Below, piece by piece: positions 1 to 20,000 of a DNA stretch of 20,000 nucleotides (within the stretch, counting starts at the first letter, position 1; each line of letters starts with the position of its first letter). The stretch is from Psammoneis japonica (taxonomy: Eukaryota), in contig QPGO01000199.1 in assembly GCA_008632985.1 (NCBI GenBank), forward strand, positions 113,957-133,956, read 5' to 3'. Made by a program: the position numbers and the translations under genes. The notes beneath the pieces were generated by a model. That model was not told the origin of the DNA and did no database searches. It was given only the letters and a program-made list of their open reading frames with translations.

Positions 1-269
1 ATCATGCCTTGCCTAAAACTTTAATCTTTGGTTGTGCTGATGCTTCATCTCCTCTCTGCACCTTCTGTCGGTATTCAGCATGGCAACAGCCGACGGGCAA
101 GCAATGGCTCAGGTGCTGAGTACGTTTAATCGCATGGAACGGGTTCGTTTTGAAGCTTTCATGACATCTGAATCTCCGACCCCTCACAAAATTCAACGCG
201 CCGCAAATACTCAACAACTTTTCTCGAAAGACACAACCCGCACAATACATAAGAAAGCAAAGCATCAAT

Positions 270-1451
270 TTGAATCATGGCACCGCAATATTGCAACAAG
301 AGAGTCTCTTTGACGAGGTGGAAATCAGCAATGAAATATTTATGGAGTCAGGAACAGATAATGATGATGTCTTTGCAAATAAGTCTGCTTGCTACTCTGC
401 ACCAGCATCCGAAAACAACGAGACTACATCCTATTGGAGACACCGCAAGTTTCGCATCATCGCCGTCATACTCACCGCCGTCGTGGCGATTGTGATTGGA
501 GTTTTCGTCATTGTAAGGGGTAGTGCCAATCCCAATGCTCTCTTTGTTCCTGTTGATCCACCCGGCAAGGAGAAAGCGGATCGTTGGGATGGCGTTTGCG
601 TGTCGTGAATGCATGCAGTGACGGCGAATGGACGGCTCTGTTTGATGCTTCCCTCAGTGATTGGAACTCAGATCCATCGCTGCAATTGACGCCGATTCGA
701 TCGACACATGATCCGGATTGTCAACCGGAAATGAAACGACTCAAGTTTTCAACGGCAATTATGGAAATACGGTTTGGCAAGGACTCAATACGATTTTGTT
801 GAGACGAGAAGTGATTGTGTGAAGTACGGTACGGCTCAATTATGATCAATCCATGGATAGTGAGCGAAAGTATTATAATGTGAGTGTGCTTGGTTGCCAT
901 CATTTGCAATTTTGGTTTTAGGTGCCACGAATTGGGTCACGGATTTGGTTTGCCACATTCCGACGAAAATCATTTTTGCATTAACTTAAGGGATTTCATG
1001 GATTACACAACCCGGCCCCGTTCCAACAAGCTGCCGGGACAGCACAATTTAAACCCCCTTAAAAAAGCTCCATGGTTCGCCCGACGAGCCACTTGTGTTT
1101 GGTGCGGCTGCCGATGTGAGTGGTACTACTTCTGGAAACTTACGTCCCAATCGAAATGGCAATACTCGATGAATGGAAAGCAATGTGTTAAATGGTGACA
1201 ATTCCACCCGTGTGGACGAGTCCGTGAACAAAAGCACCACCAGCACTATTGTACAAGAATCATCCGAAGAAGAAGAAGAGTCGGATGAAGAATCAAGTGA
1301 CGAGGAGCCTGTTTCAATGGATATATTCAACAAGCGGCACTTGAACAATATCTCTGTGCAAGGAGGATTTTTGTACCGTCTTTTTGGGACGAGATTATCG
1401 AGTCGAAATCAACAAGTTACGATTCTAACTAACACTCGCCTACTAGAGTAG
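270..1451 (+). pseudogene. Disrupted membrane-anchored metzincin-like zinc metalloprotease
   Basis: Acidic N-terminus and a TM helix (RKFRIIAVILTAVVAIVIGVFVIV). Successive frames then give LRVVNACSDGEW...DWN...DPDCQPE, NGNYGNTVWQGLN and CHELGHGFGLPHSDENHF...MDYT (HExxHxxGxxH at 926-958 followed by a Met-turn-like MDY). Frameshifts lie near 590 and 750, there is an in-frame TGA at 820-822, and a putative GTGAGT...TTAG intron at 880-921. Start and end are approximate. Confidence 0.7.
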
Positions 1452-2116
1452 AGAGTTCAATCAACGACGACTCCCTCCAAGTTGAGTGAGAGTTGCTGTT
1501 GCTGGTAGTTGGAGCTGAGGTCGTTGCTACTCTTGCTGCGTTGCTTAATGGTTGGGGCTGTTTCTGGCTGGAGATACGGTACTCTACTCGACAGCAACCG
1601 CAGAGTGTGAGTTGAAACGAATACATTAGACGTGCATTTTGGTTGAAGCCTCGAGATGAATCATCGCTCAATAAAACGGCCAAGGTCAGCCACGACAGTT
1701 GGTAAGCAGGTATTTTCCAACTTCCAACGTAATTGAATGTGCTTCGTCAGAAGGAATGTCAAAGTTCTGTACACGTAGCCTCGCTTTCTCTTACATCCTT
1801 AATATCTGTCGCTTCAATCTATAGAATATTCCCACGCTTCGACAGTTGTTTCGACGCCTCCTTGTGCTGGCCCTCACATCGCTGCTTAAACTCTCTAATT
1901 TCTTACTTAGAAAACTATGAACTAACAGATAAGTAACTAACGGTGTTTAGGTATAGCCGAATTGGGGAACACCATAATAAAATGCTACACGATTCTTACT
2001 GTCTACGGTACCTACAACACGTACATAGCTCTCTCTACCAGTAGAGAGTATTGTTCTTCTAGGTAATCGCGTGACTAGGACATTATACTTTGTCACATAC
2101 CCCTCGCGTCCACTTC

Positions 2117-3260
2117 TTATTGTGCTTCTCCTACGATCACATCATCTTCTTCTTCGATTATATGTGCTCTCATTGCGTCGTCAAAGAATATGCTGACGGC
2201 AAGATCTTTTGACACGTGTCTTTGTTAATAGCTCTCGAGCCAGCCAATGAGGAGGGCTGGGTTCCAACGGGTGCAACATGATATTACGATCCAAAGGATC
2301 GCCCGGAACAACTGCTCAATGGTCAAAAGCAGAATACACCATGGCCTGTCCCTGTGTAAAGCTTCGAATTTAAGTCTCTAGTCCAAAGCAATCAAGGACG
2401 GGAATGAAGCCTTTGACGACATGAAGTGTCGATCCCGCCATTGGTTTGTCTTGCACGACGTGTCCTCTTCGTTTGGTCAGGAGTGGCTGAATAGCGTCCA
2501 CGATTTCACCGGGGCATTGGATTTGCAATCTGTATGGGCTCCATAAGTCGCGGAGTTGCAGTAAGAAGTAACGAATGAACGGTGCGCCTTGAGGTCGGGA
2601 TCATCTGACCACCGCCACGATGAATAGGTTTATCTGCCAAGACTGCGTCTAGAATCTTGATTTTGGTACCTCGGACTGGTTCTTCACACAAAGGACCTTC
2701 CCGTGTTGCCCACTGGAAGCCTTGAACAATGCTGGATCGATACGTGCTCAGCAATGTCTTGTCTACCTCACTCGGCAGCGTATCGTCCATCAGAATGTTG
2801 GTACCGTGAGTGGGCGACGCGCCAAACGCCCATACGGAACGAGAAGAAAGCAAATCCCAATCGTACTGCTTTTGAAAGAATCGCCCGAGCTGAAAGAAAC
2901 GACCAGACACAAGTAGTGTGAGTTGAGTCAAGTAGACAAATCTAATGATCCGCGCAAGGCGCTTACCTTCCTGTTTTCCCAATTCAAATTCACTTTTCCC
3001 GCCTCGATTTTTTCAGCAAGGCCGTCGTCAAGAGGCTCCGCAATAAAGGTGAGCTTACTTCGCTTATTTGCAGTCTGAAGAACACAAAGCGGCGAGTTTG
3101 AGAACTACTGAAATAGGAACACGTGAAACAATTGACACTACTGTACTCGTTTCAACCACAGTCTCGCGGAATCCAACGACAGGGTCGGCGACTTTGACTT
3201 CAATATCCGAGTACACATGGCGAAGATCGTGCATGACACAGTCGATCGTCGTCCCGGCAA
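2117..3260 (-). pseudogene. EFTUD2: 5'-truncated, frameshifted copy of U5 snRNP 116 kDa GTPase (Snu114/EFTUD2), C-terminal part
   Basis: Recognisable motifs: [140 protein letters not shown]. Intact GTAAGC...TTCAG intron at 2966-2890. Frameshift at ~2533, in-frame TAA at 2372-2370, a deletion/frameshift at ~2213 removing RRKGL, and the natural stop at 2119-2117. No GTPase domain upstream. Confidence 0.9.
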
Positions 3261-6200
3261 GGTGCCATCTATTTGTAGACTTGCGAGTAACGATGGCGTG
3301 GTTGGGATGGACCAGCTTCGACGGTATTGCGGATAGTTGTTGGGGATTCACGCCCGGCACCAGCTTTCCGAGCTCGTCTGTAAGTAGGATATGATTATAC
3401 ATGTACAGTCAATGTTTTCCAGAGTCTCGGAAGCCCTTCCAGTGACCCTATACACTAGCAGCGCATTAATGGCGGCACTCTTTCATGCATAAATTGTCGG
3501 TGAAAGTGCCGAGCGCTTCGAATGTGAGGGCTGTGGATCAACGCCTCATGCAGATACCAATAAGCCACAACGAATTATAATAAGGACTGAAAACCTGGAT
3601 CGTGACGAGAGATAGCCGAATCCGTGAGTGAGTGAGTACATTTCTTTTTAAAAAAAAATAGAGAGAGCCATTTTGTAGCAAACGCAAGAACAACGGTAAT
3701 TCTCCAAGAAAGACAAATCCATTGCAGGACAACAACGAAAAGACACACGCGCGTTTCCATACCACTACTTGGAACTTACGAGATGCAATGGATGTGAAAA
3801 ATCAACGGTTCATAGATCACTTCTTGATGATGATTCAGTGTCATTGGATGTGTTTGTCACATTGTCCTTGTATTTGGGCAATGCAATACAAAAGAGAAAT
3901 AGGTCCGAAGTTGGAAGGATGAAAGTAATGAACACAACTGATTGACACAACGTGGCTTCATCCCAATTCAAAGCAAACGGCTTAAGCTCAGCAATCCAAA
4001 AACGCCATGGGAACTCCATTCACTCTAGCAGAGTTTTCGGCGTTTGTCTCTTAAGCTTCAAAACGAAATATTTGTCAAACGAACGCAATCTCGTCTGTAG
4101 GTTTGTGGCTTCTTTCATCCCTCCGGTCCTCCGTGGTGTTTGACTCGGTAAAGGATGTCCGCTGTTGAACGTGAGCTGTGATTGGAATGTTCCAGCGACT
4201 AATGGCCACTAGCTAGAGAGCGCTTCAACCTGCGCTTCAGCTTGGTCGGTGAAAGACGTGCGCGGCATATTCCCTCATTCTCATTCTTTGTGACTTTGGT
4301 GTTGCTGGTAGATGGCACTGCAGCTGTTCCGCCGTGGAATAAGCTGCAAGACAGAACAGCATGATGATGCTTTGTTCCACTGTGGTCGACGCATCAAGAT
4401 TGCACACATCATCAAAGATTTGAAACGCGCGAAAGATCCGCAATCCGCATAACGCGTTGAAGAGTGTTCATCCTCCTGCTGAAGATTCAAACATGACTCT
4501 GCCTCCGACTGGTGTTCTATGCACTGCCCATCCTAAAGGACTTCTTGAGGATGTGCCAGCTTGTGGCCAACAGGACACTTCCCCTTCCGGCAACACTCAC
4601 GGATGCGGGAAAGCTGTTGTGCTTCCTGCTGCATCTGTGACCTGTCCCATGCATTCTCATGGATTTAAGGCATCCAAGCTGGGCCCAGTTGCTGGGTCCA
4701 GTGCATGTGACACTGATGCTGCTGTTGTGTCTCATGTCACAGGTGCGCTCGCTGTGGACACTCGGATGGATCCTACGGATGCTAGTTCCTTGACTGTCAA
4801 GTCCACTGTGTCTGTCATGGAATCTGTTGGCAAGCCATCTGCAGTTGTTGACACTGGATCCCTCGAACTTCCCACCGAATCGGTGGCACTTCCTGCTGAA
4901 GTCCAATCCTGCCTGCTCGAGACCCCAAAGTTTTTTGTTTCTGGCCATTTTGTTGTTCCACACAAAGATGGCCATGTTCGCCCCAGTTGTGGACCATCCT
5001 CTGTTGTCAAGGTTGCACCCGAGTTGCTTGCCACCCACACGCCGCCGTCGTCTGTTGCTCATGGACGCTGCCAGTGCTTTGTTGGTTGTCAAGTTGATTC
5101 AAAATTGGATTTTTGGTTCGGCCGTCGTTGGTTTCGGATGTGCGATGCTGCCGTTCCTTCTCTTGTCCGATCAAGACCAGCGGAAGCGGGGCAACCCTGA
5201 AAGAGGGCCACCGGGTCTCATTGCCTCCCGCCATTTCATCTCTTTCCTCTGTTGTCAGGGCTGTTGTCGCATCCATTTGTGCTTTTCACGGTGCTCCGGA
5301 CCTGTCCACCATTGCCGATGATGATCCCACATTTTTTGATCAGGGAAGGGATTCCCATGGTGCAGAGGAAACATGTCAGGCCATTGAGAACTCAATCTTC
5401 CGCCAAGACACCTTGCTTGACGATCACTTTTTGAACGCCGTGCGATGCTCACCTCCGATGCGTCACTGTTCTTCCAACGTTGAGCAACTTCATGATGTGT
5501 TCTGTTTCTCTAACATGTTTTTCAAGGGCGACACAAAGTGTGGTGGCAGCATTGGTTTGCCAGGTGGGATGCCATTGCTTCATTTTCAACGCATCACTTG
5601 CCATGGTGGATTTCCAATTTTTGGCCCCATCTCTTCCGATGATCTTTGGCAACAGGATGACTCGCCAGAGTGTCCCGTTGCAGTCGATTGTTTGTGGATT
5701 GACAAAATTCTTCTCTGGTGCACGACTCAATTTGTCCAAAAGATTCATTGGGAACTGCCTTTGACATTTTTTGTCAAAGACCGACGCGCTGAGCATGAGA
5801 TGGATGTTTCATTCCCGACATGCTCGTCCCTTGATGGGATGTCATCATTGATTGTTGTCATGTTTGCGGACCAAGTCTTGGCCATTTCTTTTGGTGCTCT
5901 TCTTTGTTCTGCTGTTCTGGCCCTCTCTTTTTGTTTGGATCGTCTCTTTCTTGTTGAGCATTGCATTGCTCATCAGGGGAGGGTGACAGACATCCGAGAT
6001 GGGGAGCACACTCCCTTGTGTCGGACAGACCAGCATGGACAGCATGGAGAGATCCGATGTTCTCTCCTTTGCTCACTTTCTTTCTGATCCAGCACATGAT
6101 CATCATCTGTCCTAGACATCCGTTAGATTGTCCCGATGCCACCAGTCCATAAATTGCAAATGTTCCATGAGACTCTTTGGTTCCTGGTGCCTCTGAAAAA

Positions 6201-6939
6201 TCCACAAAAGATGCCATTTGTGGTCATTTTCATGTTCAAAACTTCTCTGTCAACAAAGAGACGGCATTCCACATCTCCTGCTTGCACCTCTTCCTCCATT
6301 TCTTTTCCTCATTTGGGTGGCCTTGGTGGAGACGTTTGCTGTGTTGCTGCTTCTTGACAGTGGCAACATTGAGACACACAAATCCTTTTGATCAGACCTC
6401 GCCCAGAGAATCAGAGCAAATGATTCACAAAAGGGTTGACAGCAGGCAGCAGGACAGTCACAATGACCAAACAAATGTTTGCAAGACACAAGATGCATCA
6501 TGCACCAGGGTTTCATGAATTTTTGTCAACTGCTTCTTTCTTTTGGCTGGACTTGGACGGGTGTGGCACGTTGCCACTTTGTGATGATGGTTTGCACTGC
6601 TTTGATCCACTTGATTTGGATGAGACAGAAGAAGCCCAACTTTTGCAACCTCCGTGCATTCAGGAAACCAATGCCGCCCCCCATGAAGCTTCATTCCATC
6701 AAGAATGAGTTGGCTGTGATGACAAAGATGTCTCTCCCACCAGCTGCACAAGTCTTTTTTTCTGTCTTGGGCCAAGCATGCCAAGGAGAGTGATTGCAAG
6801 TGCAAGTCTTTGTCCTGCTCTGCCACTTTGCATTGCCATCAACAAAACAGCTGGCTGCTCTTCTCCGCTCAACAAGCAAATGACAGAAGCCATGAAATCC
6901 AACAAATGAAGTCAAACCAATGAGCATGGTCAGGGAGCA

Positions 6940-8530
6940 AAATCTTTGTCTTGGGCAGCAGCAACCCATTGCATGAATCCACTGGAGACACAAAGATTCC
7001 CAGCTGCACAAGGTGTGCAAGCCTGAGGCCCACAGATGTGGCAAAAGAGGTGCGCAGTTGTCTTGGGATGATGCTGGGATGTGTCTTGGGCAGCAGCAGC
7101 CCCTTGCATGACTCAACAAACAGGAAGGAGTTGCACATCTGTGCAAGTCGTGCTGGAAGCATGAGGCCCACAGATGTGGCAGAGGAGGTGTGCAGCTGTC
7201 TTGGGGTGGCCTTGGACAACTCCAACAGGTCCCAAGGGACGCAACAGCAACAATGATTGGATGGCAAAGGCCTTGTCTTGTGTCAACACAGCCCCTTGTT
7301 GCTCTGACATGTGACTGGCTTGCACACCCAGCCACCCCACCCACAGAGACAAGGGAGCTTCCTGTGCTGACAAGAACAATGGCTGGGAAGCAAAGGCCTT
7401 GTCTTGTGTCAATGCACTCCCTTGTCTTTCTGACATGACTGGGTTTGGCCCAGCTCTCCACCTGCAGAGAACACCAGGGAACCATCTGTGTGACAGAGCA
7501 AGTGCACAAACATCCAAGATGACTCCATTGTGTTCCAGAGGACACAACAACAACAACGGCTGGGGAGCAAAGGCCTTGTCTTTTGTCAACACAGCACCTT
7601 GTCTTGCTGAGATGACTGGGCTCCATTGCCCAGTCACCCAACCTGCAGAGAACAGGGAACAATCCAGCATGTGACAGCACAAGTGCCAAGTTGCCTTGGG
7701 ACAGCTTTTGGTGACTCCATTGGGTCCCAAGAGACACAACAGCAACAATGTTTGGGGAGCAAAGGCCTTGTCTTGTGTCAACACAGCACCTTGCCTCTCT
7801 GACATGACTTGGTTTGGCCCAGTCATCACCGCCACACCTGCAGAGACAAGTGAGCCACCTGTGCAACAGTGCAAGTGCTCAGTTGTCTTGGGATGGCTTT
7901 TGATCACTCCATTGGATTCCAGGGGAGCCAACAACAAGAACAACTGGGAAGCAAAGGCCTTGTCTTGTGTCAATGCAGCACCTTCTTGATCTGACAGGAC
8001 TGGGTTTGGCCCACCCAACCAAGCTGGAAAGACAAGGGAGCCATCTGTGTGACAGCGCAAGCACTCAGTTGTCTCAAGGCAGGTGCAAGAAGCTCCATTG
8101 GGAGACACCAGTGGAGGCAGCAACAACAATGGTTGAGAACAGAAAGCCTTGTCTTGGGCTGACACAGCTCCTTTTCTCTCCCATGTGACTGGCTTGTTTT
8201 TTGGCCCACTGGCCACCACAGCACCTGCCTGCAGAGACAAGAGAACCATCTGCACAACCATGGGATGGCATTTCAACAATGAGCAGGAAGCAAAGGCCTT
8301 GTCTTGTGTCAATGCACCCCCTTGTCCCTCTGACATGTCTGGCTTTCACCCAGCTGCTGCACCTGCAAAGACAAGCACTGACAATGGCTGGGAAGGGAGC
8401 GCCTTGTCTTGGGCCAATGCAGCTCCTTTTGTCTCTCTTGATGTGACTGGTTTGCTTTTTGGCCTGGCTGCTGGCTGGCACACCTGCCTGCAGAGACAAG
8501 GGAGCCATCTGCACGACAGTGCAAGTGCTC
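6940..8530. repeat. Degenerate tandem repeat array (units 105-192 bp, core GCAAAGGCCTTGTCTTGTGTCAA), probably a former coding repeat
   Basis: The TGTCTT anchor occurs at 6947, 7082, 7274, 7400, 7577, 7769, 7961, 8150, 8300 and 8405. All spacings are multiples of 3, and ORF 7113..8336(-) repeats LTQDKAFA in a single frame. Confidence 0.85.
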
Positions 8531-8937
8531 AGTTGTTTGAGGTGAAATGATTGGAGTGGGGGTCATGGGCCACAGCATTCTTGGTGGCAGGTGGATGGTG
8601 GATTTGTTGTTGACAGAGGTGGCAGCAGTGGCAGGTTGTCAGCCAGAGTTCTGCAACAGCTCCAGTGTGGCAGAGCCTTCATTTGTCTTGGGGCTCCTTG
8701 TGCTGCACACTTGTGGCTGAGGTGGAGCACCATGACCAAGACTGCTGCCAGCACTGGAATGGTTGGCAGCACACGGATGGCTGCCGCTGCCTCCACAAAG
8801 AGTTTTTTCACATTTTTTTTTTGCGGCCTTGTTGCAACACATCAAAAAGAAAATGTGGTTGTGAGGGCAAGCAGATTGTGAAGATTGAAGCATCGGAACA
8901 TTGAAAAAAGATGGTGTGTGGCAGCAAAACTGTAAAA

Positions 8938-9045
8938 AATTCCATCTCAACAAGAGCACACATGCAAAACCTCATCCAAGTCATCTCAAATCATTTGAAC
9001 CTTCAGAGCTGAATGTGAGCATGAAATTTAAACAAAGTTGTCACT
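8938..9045 (+). repeat. Diverged direct repeat, copy 1 (partner at 16130-16259)
   Basis: TTCCATCT.AACAA...CACAC.TGCAAA...TCAT.CAAGTCAT...ACCTT.AGAG...TGTGAGCATG.AATTT...GTCACT is shared with 16130-16259. Confidence 0.75.
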
Positions 9046-9050
9046 TGGGA

Positions 9051-9269
9051 CGAACAAATCCCGATGCAGTCGCATGAGACAATGTCACACCTTGAGCCTG
9101 AGAGTGGCAGTGACAAACAAAGCAAACCCTGTTCCGATTGTGTTGTGTGAGATTGTGCGGGAAAGAACAACAGCCAAACCGTGCGCGCCAGCCCCGGACC
9201 AGGGGCTGACCGCCCCATCCAGATTTGCTTGGTGGCAGTCACAATGCCGATTCGTCTAAACGCAGAACA
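9051..9269 (-). repeat. 3' LTR of the copia element (outer ~44 bp missing)
   Basis: 9051-9229 aligns without gaps to 15936-16114. On the minus strand it starts TGTTC at 9269, immediately after the purine tract GAGAGGA (putative PPT, 9276-9270). Confidence 0.85.
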
Positions 9270-11984
9270 TCCTCTCAAAGAGAGGCAAACACAAAAACCC
9301 AAATTCAAACCACCAGCTGTGCTGGCTTGGGAGGCCAAGACACGTGGGCGTGAACCGCAGGTGCCTGGCCTTGGCGTTGGGACGCCACCAAAAAATGCAA
9401 GAACAAAGCTTCCAGCACCGCTCGCCTGTCACCAACTTCGTAAACAAATCCGCCAAGTTCGTGTCTGTGTCCTCCTTTCCAAAGCGAATGACACCAGCTG
9501 CTGCCGCCTCACAAACCACATGACAGTTAACGGCATTGTGCTTCTTGTGCAGTGCAGATTCCGGGACACTGACATTCTTCACCATGCCGTGGTCATTGCA
9601 AAATACATTGGCAGGGCCTTCGATCAGTGCTCCAAACATGCGAAGCTTGCAATGCAAAGCAACAGTCAACTCCTTGCAAATTCGCATCGCACAACCAACT
9701 CGCCACCAAACATTGCTGACTCCACTGTGTTCTGCCGCTTGCCAAACCAAATGATCAGAGCATTGTTCACAAATGTCAAGATCCCGCTGTGTGACCTGCG
9801 AGCAATGACATTCCCCGCATGGTCAGCATCAACAAATCCAGACACATTTGCTGGGTTGCCACGGGGCTTGGGCATCCGTGGCAGCAACTCCTCCTCAACG
9901 TCCCCACAGAACTCCATCCAATCTGCAGCAGAATTGAAAACAGATTCATCAATCTCAGGCATCTTCGGATCAGTGACCAACATTCAAATGCTTCTTCATG
10001 TGCGCAAACACGTGATGCAATGCTTCGAGGTGCCCTTTCCTTGGGTTGGCCTGGCACTGAGAGAGAACAGAAACTTCATGCAAGATGTCGACATGCCCCA
10101 ATTCAATTGCCCAGCGACAAATGCCAATCAGCTGCAAATGTCCATCCACCGAATTGGGTCCCAACTCATCTGTCACGTCCAATTCCGGCTTGCACTTGGA
10201 AGGCAATGGATCCTTGGCATTGCTCTTCAAGACTGCGCCATCTCCATCCTCTTCCAACAGACCTTCCACCGTCTTGATCGCCGACTTGATGTGTGATTTC
10301 GGTGAGCTTGCCCAAATGGTGCGCCCATCTTCGGTCTGAACCTTCTTGACATTGGCTCCAAGGCACAACGCCAGTTCTCCTTCGCTCCCAGGTTTGACAG
10401 CAAACGATTCACCTGTGCTCTTGACGATGGACTTTCCTTGATGGGAAATGATTAGAATGTCATCAACACACACGAGTGGCATTTCACAATGCTCGTGCCC
10501 ATCATCGCGAGTTGCTGCACAAATGCACATGTTGGGATCCACCTTCGCAGATTCAAAACCCACACCCCACAAAACCGTTGGTCCTGAACTCTTCAAACCA
10601 TGCAGCGCTCGGGTCACAATTGGCACCTTGCCTTGATGCTCCCCGCATTCCTTGCCACCTTCGAACCAAATCTTTTCCGCGCACGGGGCATTCAAACACG
10701 CGTTCTCCAGGTCGACAGCCATGGCATCCACTCCATTCAAAGCTGCCAATGGAAATCCTGACCACACGCTGTCCCTCGAAATGACACTTGAATGTGTGAT
10801 CTATGATGGTGTCTCTGCAGTGTGACCTCCTGCAACAAATCTGGCCTTCCCAGTGAAATCCATCTTGACGTCAAACACCAAGTGGCAGCTGATCTCCTGA
10901 TGACCTCACAAAGTTGTGCTCTTGCCTTCCCGGACAACTTGAGGGGTTTCAGCTTCGTGTTCGCGCCACGCGACCTTGCGCGCGACCTTGACCTCATTCA
11001 TCTCCTTGTTGGTTGCACGAGCCCAACAGTCTGTCCCCGTTTCCTGGTCAATCTTCAAAGCATCTTCCGCAGACTTGGGCAAATGCGTGCCGAACTTGTG
11101 GGCAGTGTGCCAACATTTCTTCTTAACCTTTGAAATGATCCGATTCCGCTTGCGCAATGCGTGCGCAACCCACCAAGCAAAAGCTGGCTCTTCGGTCAAC
11201 CTGTTCGCAACAGCATGCTCAGCAACTTCAATTGGGTTAGATTCCTTTAGATCCTTGAGCTTCACCCATGACAAGCCACCATCTTTCCATGTGACCAGTG
11301 ACTTCCATCCTTTCGCAGTTGTCTTCTTGTGTTCCTTCCCGTCAGCCACATGGACTGTCCCTTCCTGGGTCGGCATCGCTTTGCCAGTCTTCTCATGGTC
11401 CTGCATCTCCTGCAAGATAGAATGTTGGTTGCCTTCGCTGTCAACTTGAGCAAACATGTTCTCCGCGACTGCATTGGCAGCACACTTGTCCATGGCACCA
11501 TCAGTGCATTCAATCTCACATTCGCGGGTGTCAAACAATGGACTCTGATGTCGGGTCCCAATCGGTCGCCCATCCTGGCCCGTGCTCGTTTTGCTGCGAC
11601 TCCTTGTTGCTCAGCATTGGTTCCAACATCAAACACAAGCTCCATTCCCAGATGTTGGTCGATGGCCTCTTCGTTGTTGTCCTCGGGTCGTTCTCCTGGC
11701 AACAACATGTCCCCGCATTCCTCATCGGTTGGTGTCACACCACCTTCATGCTCCACTCCGGGGTTGCCGTCGATCGCGACATCATCCAAAACAAATGCCG
11801 GTGCTGCTTCATCACCTTGCAAAACGAAGTTCGTGTCATCCAATTGTGTCTCCAGTTGTTTGTTGAATTTGTCGACTTTCACACGAATGTCCGGTTGCAC
11901 CATGTCAGCCTGTGTTGCGTGCTCGACTGAAGTCTTCGAAACTGTCTTCCCGGATTCCGTGACAATCCAATGGCACATGTCTGA

Positions 11985-12424
11985 TGCAACACACAGCTGC
12001 TGATAAGAGTCAATGTATCACGGCGACGTGTTGCAGCATTTAAATGTCACAAAGGGCGTGACAAAAATGACCTTTTGTCTGCATGCATGCTGCATTGTGA
12101 ATTCATGGCGGAGTGGTTCGTCTCGCAACCATCAGGCAGGAGGCCAGGGGTTCGAAACCCTGAGTGGGAGTTGTCTGCAGCAACGTTGATCACTGTCGAA
12201 TGCGCAAAACTCTGTGCAGTTCTGTTTGTTCCTTCGTGCGCACCCACACTGTTCCGCCAAAACCGTGCAGTGTCAGCGCACGTGAGCGCAGGTCGCGTGA
12301 TGCATGGGGAGGAGTGCAATGTGCAGCTGCTGATGAGAGTCAATGTGTCACGGCGACGTGTTGCAGCATTTAAATGTCACAAAGGGCGTGACAAAAACAA
12401 CCTTTTGTCTGCATGCATGCTGCG
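11985..12424 (+). mobile_element. TRIM-like non-autonomous mini LTR element inserted in the copia integrase
   Basis: 110-bp direct repeats at 11985-12094 and 12315-12424 (TG...CA/CG) around a 220-bp interior. A PPT-like GGGGAGGAG (12306-12314) abuts the right repeat. The 4-bp TSD is CTGA (11981-11984) / CCGA (12425-12428). Removing the element restores in-frame GISHKVGS-DMCHWIVTESG. Confidence 0.85.
12106..12162 (+). promoter_or_regulatory. tRNA-like Pol III internal promoter (A box + B box) within the TRIM
   Basis: A box TGGCGGAGTGG (12106-12116) and B box GGTTCGAAACC (12149-12159), 43 nt apart start to start. The B box sits in a T-arm-like hairpin, GGGG-TTCGAAA-CCCT. Confidence 0.55.
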
Positions 12425-14094
12425 CCGATCCGACTTTGTGGGAAATGCCTGGCCACCGTCCAAGTCTCCTCGGGTCATCTGTTGCATTCGGTTTGTCGGG
12501 CCTGTCCCACCACCAGACCATGTCACAGAAACCAAAATCCAAGTGCTCGCCCATTTCGGGTGTCTGACCAGTCACCTCTTCACACCCAGTCCTCTTGTCG
12601 CGACCTCTTGCCATGCGAGGTGCCAGCTCCGATTCACACACAAGACCAAAATCCCACAGTCGTTTCGGCACCTTTTTCTTTGTCATGCGCAGATGCCAGC
12701 ACTTGGCTGGGAACCCAATCTCTCTTTCTGCAGCATGACTCTGATTCTTGCGACCTTGTTCCGTCGTCCTGAGTTGGGTCCTCATTCGACGTGCATGCTT
12801 GACAAAGTCGGCATTTCGTCCGGCAAACTCTCCAGCTCCATCCGACATGAGATGTTCTGGCACACCCACGTCATCTGCAAAATCAACAAGAGACAGACCT
12901 GCCTCCGACCTTGCAGTCATTGGCACAACCTTTGCGAATTTGCCCTGAGTGCAAACATTGGCACAAGTGTTGCCGAGCAAAGACTTCACCTTAGATGTCA
13001 ACGTGTCCACAAACCATGTCCCTTTTAGTCGCTTCCGGTGCAAGTCCAGGTGGTCAACCCTGACTCTCCTTGACATTGGTTGAGTCGCCGTCCACACGCC
13101 ATGTTGTGTGGTTGCATTGATGGTGTCCTCAGCCGTTTCCAAGCCGACTTTCCACTTTCGTGCTAGCTCTTCAGCGTCGATCTTGGAGTGACGGTCCTTG
13201 CTGCGCAGCTCCTTGATGGATCTTGCCTTCTCATCCACGTCAGACCTGTGCGGGCAAGCCACGTTGACTGAACTGATGAGCCTGTCACAGAAGGTTTGAA
13301 GGTGACAAACTGGAGACAATTGGGTTGGTTCAGTTTCAACTTCGCTTGAGACTTGGCCCTGTTGCTCATCATTTCTGAAATTTGTTCCTGTTGCATGCCA
13401 GATGTCATTGATCGGATGGCNACACATTTCAGATTGCTCCCGTGTGCGCTGTGGCAAACCCATGTCGACTTCTGTTGGTTCCCATGCATCTCCTGTTGGC
13501 AGCATGACTGGTGAGTTCTTCTCCTCCCAATCCATTGGAACGCGAGACTTGAAAGATGCGATTGTCCCTGTGGAATTGAAAGGGATGAAAGCCTCATCAG
13601 CTTCGACTCCAAACCCATTTCGAGCATCGCAGGGGTTGTCATGTGCAGGCATGTTGCATGCTCGCAATTGATTGGGATTCAACAGTGAATGCTGCATGTC
13701 AGTGCCAAACCATGACATTTGGTCTCCGACCAGCAAATGCTCGCAACTCGTCTCCGGATCCGTCCATGCCGTGCAACAACGCGCCACAGGGACCTGTTCA
13801 ATCGGCTCACAAGAATCTAGAAACGGGTGTGCTTCACAGATTTTGTTTGACAATTCCATGAGTTTCCAGTTGGCTCCAGCACAACAAGCATCCGTGTGGG
13901 TGTCACATTCATTCCTTGCCATGAAACCGGGTGTCGTCATGTTCGTTGTCGCAGTTGACACGCCTTTTCGTCGTCTTTTCTTGCAAATGAAACATTGGGT
14001 GGGGTTCAGTTAACAACACAATGAGCAACATGAACACAAATGACATGTGTGCCAGATGCGCCAATGCTCCCGTAGCTGAAACCACCCCAATCAG

Positions 14095-15494
14095 TCAAGC
14101 ATGGCCTTGACAGGCTCCTCGACCGAAAGCCCGCCCATTCCTGCCACCGCGATCACGGTCAGCTCCGCGACCGCGGCCGCCACCTTGACCTTGTTGCTGC
14201 TCTTGGCCTTGACGATCTTGGACCTGAGCTTCGGCTGCCTGCCCATTGTCTCCGTCGCATCCACCTCTTCCTGCAGCACCTCCGCGTCCACCGCGACCAT
14301 GCATCCTTTCATGAGCTTGAAAGACGCAATTGAGGCCTCTGTCAAAGCGCCACCTTTCCCATTCCTGGTCGGCAAAGTTCCTCCCACAACCGCCGCGATG
14401 GAAACCACGGCCACCGCTGCCACCTCGGCCAACCTGAGAGATCTTGCGTTTCGCACAACGCTGGGCTTCCAACTGAGCACCTGCATGTGAACGAGAGACT
14501 TCGGATGAGAAACAAGCACACGCCCCCGCGAAGTCGCGAGGGTGCTGGCCGCAGCCGCCACAAGACAAGTGTCATCTGACTTGACACCCTTTTGAAGGAT
14601 CTCAACCTTCTGCCGAGCAGATGCACGTTCATCTGGGATCTCATCCAAGGTGGCAAAGGCACTGGCAAGTTTCTCCGTGAACTTCTCAAACGCAAGTGCT
14701 GCTTCCTTCTTGTGGAACAGTGTTTCGACATTGGCCTTCGCCAGATGAACCCGCTTGCTCAATTCTCCTTCTCCGTTGCAATGATTGACCCATGCCCAGA
14801 ATGCTGCGTGCCCATTTTCAGTTGCATTGTGCGGTTCAATCCAAGCCCATCCAGCCGCATCAATCAAACATTCCTTTGGCACACGGCAAACACGACGATT
14901 GTCCACATCAAATGCATCTCCGGCGAGTGGCAGTTGATGCATGCGTTGTTCCTGAGTGTCCACAAACACAGCCGGTGCAGGCATCCTCATCATGACACAT
15001 TTCAATGGTTCCTTCAGCACACCAAGTTTCTGCGCCAATGGATTCAAGAAGGCATCCTCGCACACATCAAAATCATCCGTCTTGAATTTGGCAAGGTCGC
15101 TGACCATTGCAGTTGACTCCGTAAATTCCTTTTCAATGCGCCTGCCATCCCTGGCTGCCGCCACAGCTGCATTGTTAAAGTTCCCCGCGACCAGCGGTTG
15201 ACTCCTTTTCGTCAAATCCCTTGACCACCATGCCAACGCCTGCAAGTTCCTAATTTGAATCATTCCCAGAATCACGTGACCATCGGCTGCCGTGCGATGA
15301 GCTGCCCTCTGGGCTAAGTCCTCCACATCGTGATCAGTTTCCATGACAGCAACATTCTCAAGAGCAGCAAACCCTCCACAGAAAACAAGCCTCGCCCCAG
15401 CATTCTGGTCAACCACACCGCAAACCTGCAAAACTGCATCTGCATCAGCCGCTGTGGCCAAAGCCGCAAGTGCCACTGCAGGTGCCACTGCCAT
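14095..15494 (-). pseudogene. gag: Copia gag-like ORF, frameshifted near 14560
   Basis: Long ORF between the 5' LTR and pol with CoDi-gag-like segments (NLQALAWW, CEDAFLN, DNRRVCRVPKECL, GWAWIEP...NGHAAF, HCNGEGELSKR) and a Gly/Arg-rich tail in ORF 14095..14568. The likely ATG is at 15494. Confidence 0.8.
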
Positions 15495-15891
15495 CCCACA
15501 AAAAGAAATTAGAGGCAAAAACCCACACAATGGGTTGCGATCAAGTGTGAGTGCGCATGGTGCAGGAGGCCACACCGGCCGGTGTTGTGATGATGGGTTC
15601 ACTCAGCCAACCGACTTCGGGGTGATCAGTCCCGTGTCGTTTTTGTCGTGAGCACACGCTCGGGCATGCCACCCAATGCCGCAGTCACCCCACACCCGTC
15701 ACCAACATGGAGACATTGACTGTCGTGCAAGCATTTTCTGTTGCAAGCTGTTTCCTTGGTTGATGTGTGCGACACAGATCATGCGCTGCACGCGACAACC
15801 TCCTTTCGACGCCACGCGCACAACTCAGCACATTTTCTACAGCTGCTCGTTCCATGCACACATTCACAACAAACAACCGTTCACGACGAGT

Positions 15892-16114
15892 TGTTCCCTT
15901 GTCCTTTTCCATCAGCGTCAATGGCTCTGACAAAGCGAACAAATCCCGATGCAGTCGTGTGAGATGACATTGTGCCTCAAGCCTGAGAGCAGCAGTGACA
16001 AACAAAGCAAACCCTGTTCCGATTGCATCGTGTGAGATTGTGTGGGAAAGAACAACAGCCAAACTGTGCGCGTCAGCCCCGGACCAGGGACTGACCACCC
16101 CATCCAGATTTGCT
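15892..16114 (-). repeat. 5' LTR of the copia element (outer ~40 bp missing or diverged)
   Basis: Matches 9051-9229. On the minus strand it plausibly ends GAACA at 15892, the inverted complement of the TGTTC start of the other LTR, implying an LTR of about 263 bp. Confidence 0.8.
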
Positions 16115-16129
16115 CGAAAAAACAGCGCC

Positions 16130-16259
16130 AATTTCCATCTGAACAAAAAAAACACACTTGCAAAGCCCCGATGGCTTGACGATTCATTCAAGTCATTTTA
16201 AGCCATTCAAACCTTTAGAGTCAAATGTGTGAGCATGGAATTTTAAAAAAATGGTCACT
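16130..16259 (+). repeat. Diverged direct repeat, copy 2 (partner at 8938-9045)
   Basis: Visual alignment to 8938-9045 with one internal indel of roughly 15-20 bp. Confidence 0.75.
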
Positions 16260-18675
16260 CAAAAAGTGACACCAACAGGAGTCAACAGGCAGACAGGCCC
16301 GAGTTGTGACAAAACAGCAGCTGTCATTGCCTCACAAGACACAAAATGCAAAACACAGGGCCAGCCCAACATTGTGACAATGACAGCAGCAAGGGAAGGC
16401 AACAGAAGAGGACAAGGGGGAGCAGAGCAATGTGGGAAGTGAGACACAGCAAATGAGTTGGTGAGTGAATGGAGCCATGGCAACAATGTGATCAACCAAG
16501 ACTTTTGTCAAATCTTTCAAAACAGACTTGTTGACACAAGGCAACACAGTGCAAGTGGAGCCAGAACAGAAGAAAGTCATGCAGGGGCTGCACAAAGGCA
16601 AGCAGAAATGCCATTTGCAACAAGCCTGTTCTGCAGAAAACATGCACAATGTGCTGATCTGTTGCACACTGTTTTCTTGTCTTTGCAGTCATGATGGCTG
16701 TGATGAGATGGCATGACAAGCATGAAAAGCACAAGGTCAGGACATGGAACAAATGAACAATGCAGACAAAGGAGAGCAAATGCAAGGAAAGATGCAATGA
16801 GCCAAACATCAAACAAGAGAATGACTGTGGCACGGAAGCCATGGCAGGAGAAAGAACAACACAAGGGGGGGGGGAGAGCAGGAAGCATTTTGGCATGTTT
16901 GCTGCAGAAAGGTCAAAAGCAGTTGGCACAAATTGCATTTAAATTGTGCACAGCCAATGAACAAGCATCTCAATGAGATGAGCCAAATGTTGTTGTTGTG
17001 AGAAATGAGCAATGTCAGAAAATGGACACAATTGAAACCTTGTCAAGAGCCAAAAATGCCATGTTGCCAGCTTCATCAATTGTTGTTTCCCACTTGGAAT
17101 CTTTGTTTGACAATTGGACATGAAATGAACAACTGCAAAAACATTGTGGTTGCAAGCCAATCAAGATGTCATGCACCAGTTGCCCACAAGAGCCAATCCA
17201 TTGAGTGCATTTTCCTGTTGAGTGCATTTCCTGCTTTGCATGAGGGAGGAGGGGGTGATGATTGAAATGGCTTGATTCACAGTTGGTCATCACTTGCTGC
17301 ACTCTCATTCAGCACACAGATGAATTCTCAATGAAAGCAATGATGTTTTCCAGACTTGGTGGTTGCTCCTCCATGGCAGCAAACAGGACAAAGTCTTGAC
17401 ACAAAGAAAGGCATCTTTTCAAGCTGCAACTTGTTTGAAATCCCAGGAGGTGCAAGCAACACAACAGCTTCAGGTGGGAAATGCAAGTGGAAGCATGTTG
17501 CCAGTGCCTTTGCACACTTGCATGGCAACAGCGCTGCCAAAGCCACAAACAAATGCCTGTTGAAAAGAGTCTGATCAGACTGGCACCTTTTTGGACTTGG
17601 GGTGATCTGACACCAAACAAGCACATGATCCAACACTGGTGACTTGGCACCTTGTTTTGCCAGGGCTGTTTGCTCTTGTTTTCAAGGAGCAACTTGCACC
17701 CTGTGCATCTTCTTCCAAGTCATCTGCTGTCTCCTCTTCCAAGTCTTCTGTTGTCTGACATTTGACCATGAACCTTGCTGCAGCCAATCAATTGGTTGTT
17801 GAAAAAAGAATTGTGAGATGCGACAACTGCACGATGTTTCGTAGAAACCGCAACGACATTTGGAACAAACTGTGGCATTGGACATGGCAGTGCTGTTCAA
17901 ATGACTTGCTGGCAGTCGCTCAATCGTCTTTGTCAACACCAGCCAGAGACAACAAATGCTTGTCGCAAAATGAAAGAGCTGTCATTGTGCGCTGCAATGT
18001 GACAATTGCAGGACATGTGCAACCTTGGTTGTCTGTCTCTCCACCCAGAGCAACAAAAAGAAGATTGCTTGGCATTGCAGTCAGACCCCCACACATTCAT
18101 TCATCTTGCTTCTTGACGTGTTTGAAGGCAGAACCAAAGATGTTCTTGCGCCAACCCCTGAGTTGACTGGCGGCTTCTGATTCGCCATTTTCACCTCCAC
18201 TTTCGGCGCATTCATTCTAAGTAGATTCCACGTACAAAGATACGGCGCGCATGGTGGATGCTGAAAAGTTGGACGTGCTCTCTTCACGAGATTTGTGCAC
18301 TGTACGTACCGTACTTTACGCACATGTCACAGTCATTTGTCAACGTCATTTGAGACATTTTTGTTAAATTGCGTACGTCATCGAGATTTGAAACTCAACA
18401 TCTAACATCTCTGCTCTCTCTTCTCACAAAATGGATCGCTGAAGATCGCTCCTCTTTATGTACCGTAGGGCCTACCATACAATAATTTCTCCATAGAGAG
18501 CATTGGCAACCACCTATTGTATTGCAACCTTGGGCTATTGCTCTTGATAACACACGCTACTCAATTGTATCTTGGCTGGTTGCGAGTCACAACATTGCAT
18601 AGCATTCGTTCAGCCACTGGGAAAGTGCTGTCGATCGGATATCGGAGCATCGAAGCTTTCCATCCGCTATTAACT

Positions 18676-18881
18676 ATCAAAGTCGATTCGTTCTTCTCAT
18701 CAAAACTGTGGCGTTGTCTCTCATTCTGAACGACTTCTCCATTCGACATCAGACAATGCTAGGCCGATGCTAGCCGCCATCAACTTCGATTTGGTCTTCT
18801 CATCAAAACGGTCGCGTTGTCTCTCGTTCTGAACGACATCTCAAGTCGACATCAGACAATACTACCCCGATGCTAGCCGCC
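18676..18881. repeat. Two-copy 103-bp tandem duplication
   Basis: ATCAA...CTTCTCATCAAAAC...GCGTTGTCTCTC.TTCTGAACGAC...TCGACATCAGACAAT.CTA...CGATGCTAGCCGCC occurs at 18676-18778 and 18779-18881. Confidence 0.9.
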
Positions 18882-20000
18882 GACCTTCGTTGACAAGCCA
18901 GTATGAGTTTACACGACAAGGCAAGTTTCAAACCAAACCAGGATTGAGTTCCTTCGACTCTACGAGTCTTCTATCCCTCAAGAACAGCTCCTCAAGTGAC
19001 GTCGCAGGTTACTCCTATTGTACCGTTGATTGACGTGTTTGTTTGGCGCGAGTCTACAAGCTTTTCGACTCAAGAACGTTCCATTGATCTGTTATCGAGT
19101 TTGCTACGTACAATTCGTACTACTGGTACATCAAGATGGCAAATACCAAAATTCCTCCGCCTAAGACTCCACAGACGGGCGAGAAACCGCCTTTAAAAGA
19201 ATCAGGCACCAGCGATCAAAGCCGATCACGGTGAGTCCAACGTTATAGGGTTGAGTTTGCACTTGTCGCACTTACAATTGGGTTTAAATGAACCGGGAAA
19301 CGATGGAAATGTTGAATTGAAGCAGCCTGTGGATCACACATAGTGACAGCTGATTACGATGCCGACTTGATTCTGACAGACTGCTATTGCGAGCGATACG
19401 GTTAACTTGCTGCGGATACCTCGGCATGTGCAAGCCAATCGAAGGACAACCGAATCGTTGTCAAGACGACTAAGAAGAAGTTTCTCTGGAACAAAAGAGT
19501 ACTTTGTTTCGCAGCAGGATAGCGGAACTCCAAGAAAATGTCTAGAAAAAGTTTAAGACTCTCAGAAGAACAAGGGAAAGTGATTACAGTGCGACTTGAA
19601 ACTTGGAAACGAAAACTGCAATGGTGAGCACGAAGGAGAAGAAATCTAGTCATATTACATATCGATAGTGAAGGAGTCGAGGCGTTGGGAGAAAGCTGTC
19701 CAAGCGCGTCAATTCGAGCGGAGAACACAAAAAGCAGTGTCGTAACTTTGTTCAGCCGCACAAGAAGCGAAAGAATCGAGTGGCGAAGTAGTGACATGCA
19801 GCAAAAGCCAGCGTAGATTACGAACTGAAGCCTTCGTGAAAAGATCACACTGGCCTGAAAATAAGTGCGGACACGACTTAGTGCGACGCAGAAGGTCGAG
19901 AATCAACATCAATTCTGTCGAACAGCTCAGCTCTTTTCAAGAGGCAAATATGATCTTGAGGATCCAATAACCACGATACCATAGGTTCCTACATACAAGG

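Follow-up and report, generated by a model that had tools for sequence, protein, structure and literature searches.

The 20,000-nt stretch of the genome of the diatom Psammoneis japonica analyzed here (assembly GCA_008632985.1, contig QPGO01000199.1, positions 113,957 to 133,956 of the forward strand, with a single N at 13421; referred to below as the window, whose numbering is used throughout) contains a block, 4215-18215, in which a degenerate Ty1/copia-type long terminal repeat (LTR) retrotransposon is nested in other repeats and from which the dinucleotide TpA has nearly vanished. TpA has been replaced by TpG and CpA on both strands, and this is very probably the result of a process that acts after integration, is confined to the DNA of the block, and is of the same kind as one described recently in Bigelowiella natans (Mettrop et al., bioRxiv 10.64898/2026.01.13.699255).

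Loss of TpA and Gain of TpG and CpA

In the block (14,001 nt), TA is found 46 times as compared with the 851 occurrences expected from base composition, an observed-to-expected ratio (O/E) of 0.05, whereas the ratios in the flanks are 0.61 on the left (187 observed, 307 expected) and 0.63 on the right (84 observed, 132 expected). The preliminary description of this DNA, which was made from the letters alone, had put the number by eye at 40-45 over about 14 kb with normal flanks, and the counts bear this out. TG (1405 observed, 826 expected, O/E 1.70) and CA (1512 observed, 921 expected, O/E 1.64) are in excess by an amount that matches the deficit of TA. AA (O/E 1.24), TT (1.21), and AT (0.91) are not depleted, and in the individual segments of the block the ratios range from 1.02 to 1.30 for AA and from 1.14 to 1.45 for TT; TpA/ApT is 0.06 in the block as against 0.67 in the flanks. 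At the TA density of six unmutated relatives of the retrotransposon, about 643 TA would be expected in 4801-18215, where 37 are left, a loss of about 94%.

The right limit of the block is sharp to within a few bases, the last inner TA being at 17842 and the next ones at 18218, 18222, 18233, and 18241. On the left the change is gradual; the zone 4215-4800 has 9 TA as compared with 26 expected at the density of the flank (P = 1e-4), and the next TA is encountered only at 5511. Part of this zone, 4215-4484, is a unique stretch beside the transcript end of a host gene and has 4 TA where 12 are expected, and the graded edge may represent leakage out of the affected domain.

One consequence is that TAA and TAG stop codons fall together from 40 to 4.5 per kb inside the block and all stop codons fall from 81 to 48.5 per kb. 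The scarcity of TAA and TAG accounts for the many long frames found on either strand of the block; 54 open reading frames (ORFs) of at least 100 residues are present in the whole window, mostly within the block, and most of the long frames of the block should not be read as genes.

Substitutions in Repeated Copies and in the Encoded Proteins

The two LTRs of a retrotransposon are identical at the time of integration. The LTRs of the copia element (9051-9229 and 15936-16114) now differ by 14 events, of which 8 are TG-versus-CA differences and 4 are transitions at CpG; the remaining 2 are also transitions, transversions are absent, and both copies are devoid of TA. A TG/CA pair arises when one ancestral TA is changed on opposite strands in the two copies, and because the LTRs now differ at 8 former TA sites, the TpA changes must have arisen in the chromosome after integration. 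A second comparison is provided by a short repeat that is present twice inside the element (11985-12093 and 12315-12423), in which the copies differ by 3 TG/CA pairs and 2 instances of TA versus TG and by nothing else. In the two pairs combined, former TpA sites account for 13 of the 19 differences, and transversions are absent. The LTR differences that lie outside TpA and CpG, at 9188 and 9205 versus 16073 and 16090, are both changes from C to T in G-C-C (GCC/GTC and, on the other strand, GGC/GAC), which may hint at cytosine methylation outside CpG or be due to chance.

The strand on which the changes occurred can be deduced from the products, since TAY to TGY (Y, pyrimidine) represents A to G on the coding strand and TAY to CAY represents A to G on the other strand. 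Five collinear minus-strand frames of the copia element align with residues 38-1418 of a 1418-residue polyprotein (P0286), the nearest relative of normal composition, with 62% identity over 1193 residues. All 34 of the aligned Tyr residues of P0286 are replaced in the window copy, by Cys in 16 cases, His in 12, Phe in 3, and other residues in three, so that none remains Tyr. Similarly, at the 12 columns that have Tyr in at least half of 69 homologs of the reverse transcriptase (RT), the window copy has His (6), Cys (5), or Met (1). The TG share of TG plus CA in the block is 0.477, and the TG or CA outcomes of neighboring sites are uncorrelated (z = 0.17), although this comparison has limited power, with only about one-third of the TG and CA deriving from TA. 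The near-even ratio of Cys to His, the TG share, and the lack of run structure indicate that the changes were independent events on both strands; the strand-clustered outcomes that processive deamination of a single strand would leave were looked for and rejected on the same z value. Changes from Arg to Cys (5) and from Arg to His (7) relative to P0286 are attributable to decay of CpG.

The five peptide motifs that were quoted in the preliminary description as having lost Tyr are all present in minus-strand frames (CVDD at 10459-10470, NACLNA at 10687-10704, LHGLK at 10591-10605, AEHAVAN at 11203-11223, and CHW at 11967-11975), and normal homologs have Tyr in four of them, all but CHW. Thus, where normal relatives read NAYLNAPC, RALYGLKSS, and YVDD, the window copy has a segment beginning NAC, RALHGLKSS, and CVDD, respectively.

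Sequence Context and Decay of CpG

The TA that survive are not a random sample. Of the 37, 25 are in the context YTAR (R, purine), made up of TTAA (10), CTAA or TTAG (12), and CTAG (3); by comparison, this context accounts for 52 of the 271 flank TA (P = 5e-9) and for 236 of the 1507 TA of the relatives (P = 5e-12). By estimate, 25% of YTAR sites have survived, as have 2.9% of those that read T-A-Y on one strand and 1.0% of RTAY sites. These values fit a target 5'-T-A-Y-3' that is recognized independently on each strand with a 3- to 4-fold preference over T-A-R. The products have the same bias; TGC and TGT are in excess by 30.1 and 23.3 per kb, where TAC and TAT have lost 25.6 and 28.3 per kb, respectively, whereas the excess of TGA is 7.2 per kb versus a loss of 20.7 per kb for TAA.

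CpG is also deficient in the block, and the deficient domain has the same limits as the TpA-free domain. The O/E for CpG is 1.03-1.14 in the flanks and 0.06-0.74 inside the block, with values of 0.63-0.74 in parts that look younger and 0.06-0.11 in 6151-9050 and 16166-17800, where the near absence of CpG suggests that another decay process, slower than the loss of TpA, has also acted on this domain. In the copia element (9051-16165), TA occurs 26 times as compared with 403 expected and the O/E for CpG is 0.74; relative to the unmutated relatives it has lost about 92% of TpA (O/E 0.06 versus about 0.7) and about 26% of CpG (0.74 versus about 1.0), from which the per-site rate for TpA would exceed that for CpG by about one order of magnitude within this DNA.

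The domain could be marked for mutation by its chromatin or by homology between repeated copies. Duplication as a trigger would be in keeping with the high copy number of 4670-6670 and 12007-12673, but the contig covering 16375-18274, assembled from public sequencing run X1, is unique and is TA-free up to 18215. Because the CpG deficit is co-extensive with the TpA deficit and 16375-18215 is TA-free in a single unique contig, a chromatin domain would be favored over repeat homology as the address label. Copia elements of another diatom, Phaeodactylum, carry H3K9me2/3 and H3K27me3 (PMC4504042); the passages of that article retrieved by a term search say nothing of TpA mutation.

Intact and Tyr-poor Copia Relatives

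Native avoidance of TA by the element was considered and is ruled out by its relatives, in which TpA and Tyr are normal. In the six metagenome contigs that carry relatives of the RT (50-53% identity), the O/E for TA is 0.63-0.75 and that for CpG is 0.81-1.08, and the 119 closest normal polyproteins contain 2.7-5% Tyr. To judge from these sequences, the ancestors of the copia element in the window had normal TpA, and the concern, voiced in the preliminary description, that intact members of the family might also be devoid of TpA and Tyr is dispelled. The named relatives of the RT are all from the diatom Fragilaria crotonensis.

Copies with a composition like that of the window copy are present elsewhere in public data. 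Among 150 representatives of the RT relatives, 10 have less than 1% Tyr and more than 7% Cys plus His, as compared with a median of 4.3% for each of the two measures. Their sources are ENA, JGI, and Logan assemblies; they are 35-53% identical to the window copy and so belong to other copia lineages; loss of TpA in these public copies is deduced from protein composition alone. One cluster member, P0275, is an uninterrupted polyprotein of 1377 residues with zero Tyr. In a set of 120 longer hits, one is Tyr-poor (0.29%), 119 have 2.7-5% Tyr, and nothing lies between, so that copia copies look either untouched or saturated.

Composition of the Block and Its Surroundings

The features of the window are collected in Table 1. 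The pieces nested in the block number at least two, or three or four if composition is used to separate them; they are unrelated, and all are without TA. The preliminary description had counted at least three unrelated nested elements; homology establishes the copia element as one of them, whereas the other pieces are set apart only by their CpG content and by the copia insertion.

Table 1. Coordinates of features in the 20,000-nt window
Feature	Position	Strand	Remarks
Snu114/U5 116-kDa small nuclear ribonucleoprotein GTPase exons	2509..3408	-	Normal composition; EFG_IV, E = 2e-19
Left edge zone, partial TpA loss	4215..4800	.	Adjoins 5' end of Snu114-like gene transcript; TA 9 versus 26
Segment A, repeat, TA-free	4801..6150	.	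TA 3 versus 79 expected; CpG O/E 0.63
Segment B1, TA-free and CpG-free, tandem array of about 190 bp	6151..9050	.	TA 2 versus 180; CG 20 versus 183
Ty1/copia-type LTR retrotransposon, degenerate, in segment B	9051..16165	-	LTR pair; pol split over at least five frames; RVT_2 in homologs
LTR, 3' end in element orientation	9051..9229	-	179 nt, 87.7% identical, ungapped, to 15936-16114
RT frame, CVDD for YVDD of relatives	9973..10800	-	Relatives in representative library, best E = 2e-71
Short high-copy repeat, first copy, in copia element	11985..12093	.	Two TA where second copy has TG
Short high-copy repeat, second copy, in copia element	12315..12423	.	Compared with 11985-12093
Upstream pol frame at copia integrase position	12351..14009	-	59% identical to P0286 residues 38-548; contains N at 13421
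Long frame at gag position	14094..15602	-	No homology support
LTR, 5' end in element orientation	15936..16114	-	Pair of 9051-9229
Segment B2, TA-free and CpG-free, continues B1 past copia insertion	16166..17800	.	TA 4 versus 120; CG 5 versus 83 (O/E 0.06)
Segment C, TA-free, up to sharp right boundary	17801..18215	.	TA 1 versus 29; CpG O/E 0.65

Segment A is repetitive. The summed depth of X1 over it is 1215-3974 as compared with about 60-75 for unique contigs, high copy number extending over 4670-6670. Its frames have no Pfam match, and a search with the frame of 329 residues at 5098-6084 gave no homologs at near lengths. Segment C is likewise devoid of Pfam matches. In segment B1, the O/E for CpG is 0.11 and those for TG and CA are both 1.82. 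A tandem array of units of about 190 bp occupies 7179-8440 (TRF reports a period of 192 with 2.7 copies at 7518-8039, and looser copies lie on both sides); this array yields long, repetitive, spurious frames on both strands. Segment B2 lies within the single unique X1 contig 16375-18274, which has 0 differences from the window. Segments B1 and B2 together (segment B) suggest an older, long-methylated host element that was interrupted by the copia insertion; B would be older because it is nearly free of CpG while the inserted element keeps CpG at 0.74. A joint in X1 from 8960 to 16175, which skips 7214 and has a side of 24, was considered as the empty site of the copia element and was rejected because it is too short to be reliable and its ends do not coincide with those of the LTRs.

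The identification of the copia element rests on its LTR pair and on its RT, where the frame has 3521 relatives in a representative protein library searched with phmmer (best E = 2e-71). Its own score against RVT_2 is 12.2 bits, under the cutoff of 31.6, but it matches RVT_2-bearing proteins at E = 2e-71 to 2e-107, and full-length relatives of the element match Pfam RVT_2 at E = 4e-24 and 3e-21. A gapped, extended alignment of the LTR pair beyond 9051-9229 is noise. The frame at the integrase position has no Pfam match of its own, integrase included, and a related polyprotein has only a weak match to rve_3 (E = 0.04). The frame at the gag position has no Pfam match and no similarity to P0286 and may be open only through the scarcity of stop codons in the block. 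The short repeat within the element has a length of about 110-140 bp (11985-12123 and 12315-12456), with loose ends at 11985 and 12123, and the summed depth of X1 in the bin 12007-12673 is 58,510. Because two TA are kept in the first copy that read TG in the second, the first copy may represent a more recent insertion of a small element that is very abundant.

The host gene on the left has normal composition and encodes a Snu114-like protein. Among the best 120 matches, the named relatives at 77% identity or more are all diatoms (Thalassiosira, Nitzschia, Fistulifera, Skeletonema, Cyclotella, Epithemia, and others, at 79-83%), the other named match is one mammal at 69%, and the best unnamed matches are at 84-89%; these 120 include neither an identical protein nor one from Bigelowiella. 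Contigs of a second public run, X2, skip 2889-2967 and 3592-3778 with CT..AC ends, as the minus-strand introns of a Snu114-like gene would, and this run, though listed as "DNA?", behaves like RNA. Its contigs cover only 1-4309 of the window and say nothing of expression in the block. The unique X1 contig 3710-4484 spans the left edge of the block with 0 differences.

Some further observations concern the outer parts of the window. Over 1-1334, both X1 and the RNA-like X2 have a summed depth 3-5 times that of the unique sequence nearby, and many differences and small skips are present in the contigs, which suggests a multi-copy gene family; a frame at 884-1195 has a weak match to Metallopep (PF12044, E = 1e-4). 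The first 1-kb window of the 20,000 nt has a Rho(TpA) of 0.43. In the normal right flank, 18676-18881 consists of two tandem copies of a 103-bp unit that are 87% alike.

Mechanism and Alternative Explanations

The specificity for TpA, the restriction to transitions, the symmetry between the strands, the occurrence of the changes after integration, their confinement to the block, and the preference for a pyrimidine at +1 are best accounted for by the post-integration process proposed at the outset. A mutator of DNA that changes TpA to TpG or CpA on both strands in a repeated or silent block had been put forward in the preliminary description, and it is upheld by the differences between the LTRs and between the internal duplicates, by the split between Cys and His, by the normal relatives, and by what is reported of Bigelowiella. 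In such a process, the A of 5'-T-A-3' would be changed to G after integration on either strand independently, TA becoming TG or CA with about equal odds; it would favor T-A-Y by 3- to 4-fold and would run to the point at which 4801-18215 had lost about 94% of its expected TA. Adenine in DNA would be deaminated to hypoxanthine, which would pair with C and be fixed as G at the next replication. The address label would be a silent, cytosine-methylated chromatin state rather than homology between copies. Enzymatic deamination of adenine in DNA by a deaminase with the TadA/ADAT fold would be a suitable chemistry, and the chance that it is the actual one appears to be about even; such an agent is likely because the native minimal substrate of TadA has the edited A in the context U-A-C (PMC6506237) and engineered TadA demonstrates that the fold can work on DNA (PMC9399415).

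Several points weigh against this explanation or parts of it. TpA is self-complementary, and attack on A and attack on T are indistinguishable from sequence. The T-A-Y preference is derived from 37 survivors and from proxy baselines (the flanks and relatives that are 50% identical), and some of the surviving TA may be new ones from later mutation. The stretch 16375-18215, which is unique today, could have been repeated when it was mutated. The preprint on Bigelowiella, dated 14 Apr 2026, is not peer reviewed and, for an enzyme, names ADAT2 only as a candidate. Finally, X1 is possibly derived from the sample used for the assembly and its library type is unrecorded; the check for artefacts made with it is not fully independent.

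This uncertainty about X1, together with the single N in the window, is what can be said for the idea that sequencing, base calling, or polishing introduced an artefact because the region is modified or repetitive, which is nonetheless extremely unlikely. X1 holds 75% of the words sampled from 9000-18999, and contigs assembled from it de novo agree with the window with 0 differences over TA-free stretches and across the sharp right boundary (6276-7293, 16375-18274, which spans that edge, and 3710-4484). Retention of TA in the reads had been raised in the preliminary description as a sign of such an artefact; the X1 contigs are TA-free as well, a result that is qualified by the incomplete independence of X1 from the assembly. 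In addition, one repeat copy may have TG where another with identical surroundings has CA, which a context-driven error in base calling or polishing would not give, and Tyr-free, Cys/His-rich copia proteins are found in the other data sets described above.

Mechanisms other than deamination of adenine in DNA can also be envisaged. Error-prone repair synthesis in heterochromatin by a Pol eta-like polymerase, a candidate in the preliminary description, would produce A to G at WA motifs (W, A or T), and the hotspot of Pol eta includes TA. However, a preference for WA should also erode AA and TT, which are untouched (O/E at least 1.0 in every segment of the block), and transversions are lacking among the 19 repeat-pair differences, so that this candidate does not fit and is very unlikely. 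The decay of a symmetric adenine mark at TpA in silent chromatin, such as N6-methyladenine on both strands, would be analogous to that of 5-methylcytosine (5mC) at CpG and would be in keeping with the palindromic dinucleotide and with the co-extensive decay of CpG, as two maintenance marks on one domain. Sites that have T-A-Y on one strand are depleted nearly as much as RTAY, however, which fits recognition of half-sites better, and we know of no TpA-specific methylation of adenine in these lineages; such a mark has a slight chance of being the cause. A somewhat better chance, though still a low one, is given to attack on thymine in place of adenine, for example oxidation to a base of the 5-hydroxymethyluracil type that mispairs with G and leads to T to C. 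The results for substitutions and survivors fit this equally, TpA being its own complement, and the preference for T-A-Y can be restated as one for R-T-A, but no positive evidence for it was found in the analysis of the window, the context resembles the native substrate of TadA (PMC6506237), and the authors of the preprint favor adenine deamination, as a proposal (bioRxiv 10.64898/2026.01.13.699255). Editing of retroelement transcripts by ADAR/ADAT-type enzymes, followed by copying into DNA by reverse transcription, has virtually no likelihood. ADAR-type enzymes do favor U before the edited A (as cited in bioRxiv 10.64898/2026.01.13.699255), but editing of RNA predicts changes of the sense strand only and identical LTRs, whereas the TG share is 0.477, Cys and His are in a ratio of 16:12, and 8 former TA sites distinguish the two LTRs; segments other than retroelements (the tandem array) and sequence past the ends of the element are equally affected. 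The preliminary description was correct in excluding strand-biased RNA editing, together with repeat-induced point mutation (RIP) and decay of 5mC, as the cause of the TpA loss.

Deamination of adenine by a chromatin-addressed process would have implications beyond the window. To our knowledge, there are hardly any known cases in which adenine of chromosomal DNA is edited naturally. The same footprint at saturation in a diatom retrotransposon nest would mean that the process is spread widely among phytoplankton of ecological dominance, that ordinary transposons are among its targets along with integrated viruses, and that it could be studied in organisms for which working genetics are available. 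Both the T-A-Y preference and the independence of events on the two strands narrow the search for the enzyme, and a natural DNA adenine deaminase would be of interest for genome editing. A broader conjecture, plausible although held with less than even confidence, is that TpA editing of silenced foreign or selfish DNA may be an old genome defense shared by the stramenopile-alveolate-rhizarian (SAR) group, at least by Rhizaria and diatoms, and carried out by a natural T-A-Y deaminase that is chromatin-addressed and switch-like, the last property being suggested by the bimodal Tyr content of public copia proteins; if true, it would be an inactivation pathway comparable in reach to fungal RIP and the natural counterpart of engineered adenine base editors. 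On a practical level, TA-free blocks lose TAA and TAG, give long false ORFs that mislead gene callers, and weaken Pfam matches, as seen in the subthreshold score of the RT frame.

Comparison with Known Systems

RIP in fungi resembles the process in the block in that repeated or selfish DNA is hypermutated in place through transitions and a particular dinucleotide is preferred; its footprint takes the form of a block, and it may leak into adjoining sequence. RIP recognizes duplication and acts before meiosis. It differs in direction, since its C to T changes, mostly at CpA, create TpA, whereas here TpA is destroyed (TpA/ApT 0.06 versus 0.67). Deamination of 5mC at CpG similarly converts a self-complementary dinucleotide into TG or CA on either strand in silent DNA, and decay of this type is also active in the block (CpG O/E 0.06-0.74; 4 of the 14 LTR differences), but the base affected is C, not A or T, and the decay is about ten-fold slower per site. 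Hyper-editing by ADAR and editing of cDNA by APOBEC3 also leave clusters of deaminase-made transitions in selfish elements; they occur before integration and on one strand, in contrast with the symmetric, post-integration changes in the block, and APOBEC changes C, not A. TadA and ADAT2-ADAT3 convert A to inosine, which is read as G, and the U-A-C substrate of TadA resembles the T-A-Y footprint (PMC6506237); the natural enzymes edit tRNA, and the likeness is one of footprint only.

The closest parallel is with B. natans. In mutation-accumulation lines of this organism, as reported in the preprint, 231 of 302 nuclear single-nucleotide mutations were in giant-virus and virophage inserts, and all but one of these were A to G or T to C, all those at TpA (Mettrop et al., bioRxiv 10.64898/2026.01.13.699255). 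The rate is given as about 6e-7 per site per generation, about 1000-fold over background, in some lines only; the genome contains 124 clusters of 1-kb windows that are poor in TpA and rich in CpA plus TpG; the TpA-poor coding sequences are enriched for reverse-transcriptase and DDE domains; and the authors propose deamination of adenine in DNA, with a homolog of ADAT2 as a candidate (bioRxiv 10.64898/2026.01.13.699255). When the cluster thresholds of the preprint are applied to the present DNA, 11 of its 20 1-kb windows pass, in runs of 8 (6001-14000) and 3 (15001-18000). In both cases, A to G and T to C changes occur at TpA on both strands, the loss of TpA is coupled to a gain of CpA plus TpG, and the changes are confined to inserted DNA that is not of the host, which in the present case is a copia element and repeats with normal flanks.

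The differences between the two cases are also informative. The host described in the preprint is a rhizarian (chlorarachniophyte) and that of the window is a diatom; the targets are mainly giant-virus and virophage inserts in the one and an LTR retrotransposon nested in repeats in the other; depletion is partial in B. natans (Rho 0.45 for a giant-virus insert), whereas it is near saturation here (0.00-0.11 per kb). Rates were measured in that organism and are deduced here. The main text of the preprint has nothing on context past the dinucleotide ("trinucleotide" has 0 uses) and nothing on a co-extensive decay of CpG. In the literature on hypermutation, transposable elements, and diatoms, judged at the level of listings and abstracts, this preprint is the only report of the same TpA signature. 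The view in the preliminary description that there is no known precedent has therefore been overtaken, in that the preprint describes the signature without a characterized enzyme. TpA hypermutation itself is thus already known, though very recently and with its mechanism not established there; what the window adds is its saturation in a nest of diatom retrotransposon and repeats, the extended T-A-Y motif, and the co-extensive decay of CpG.

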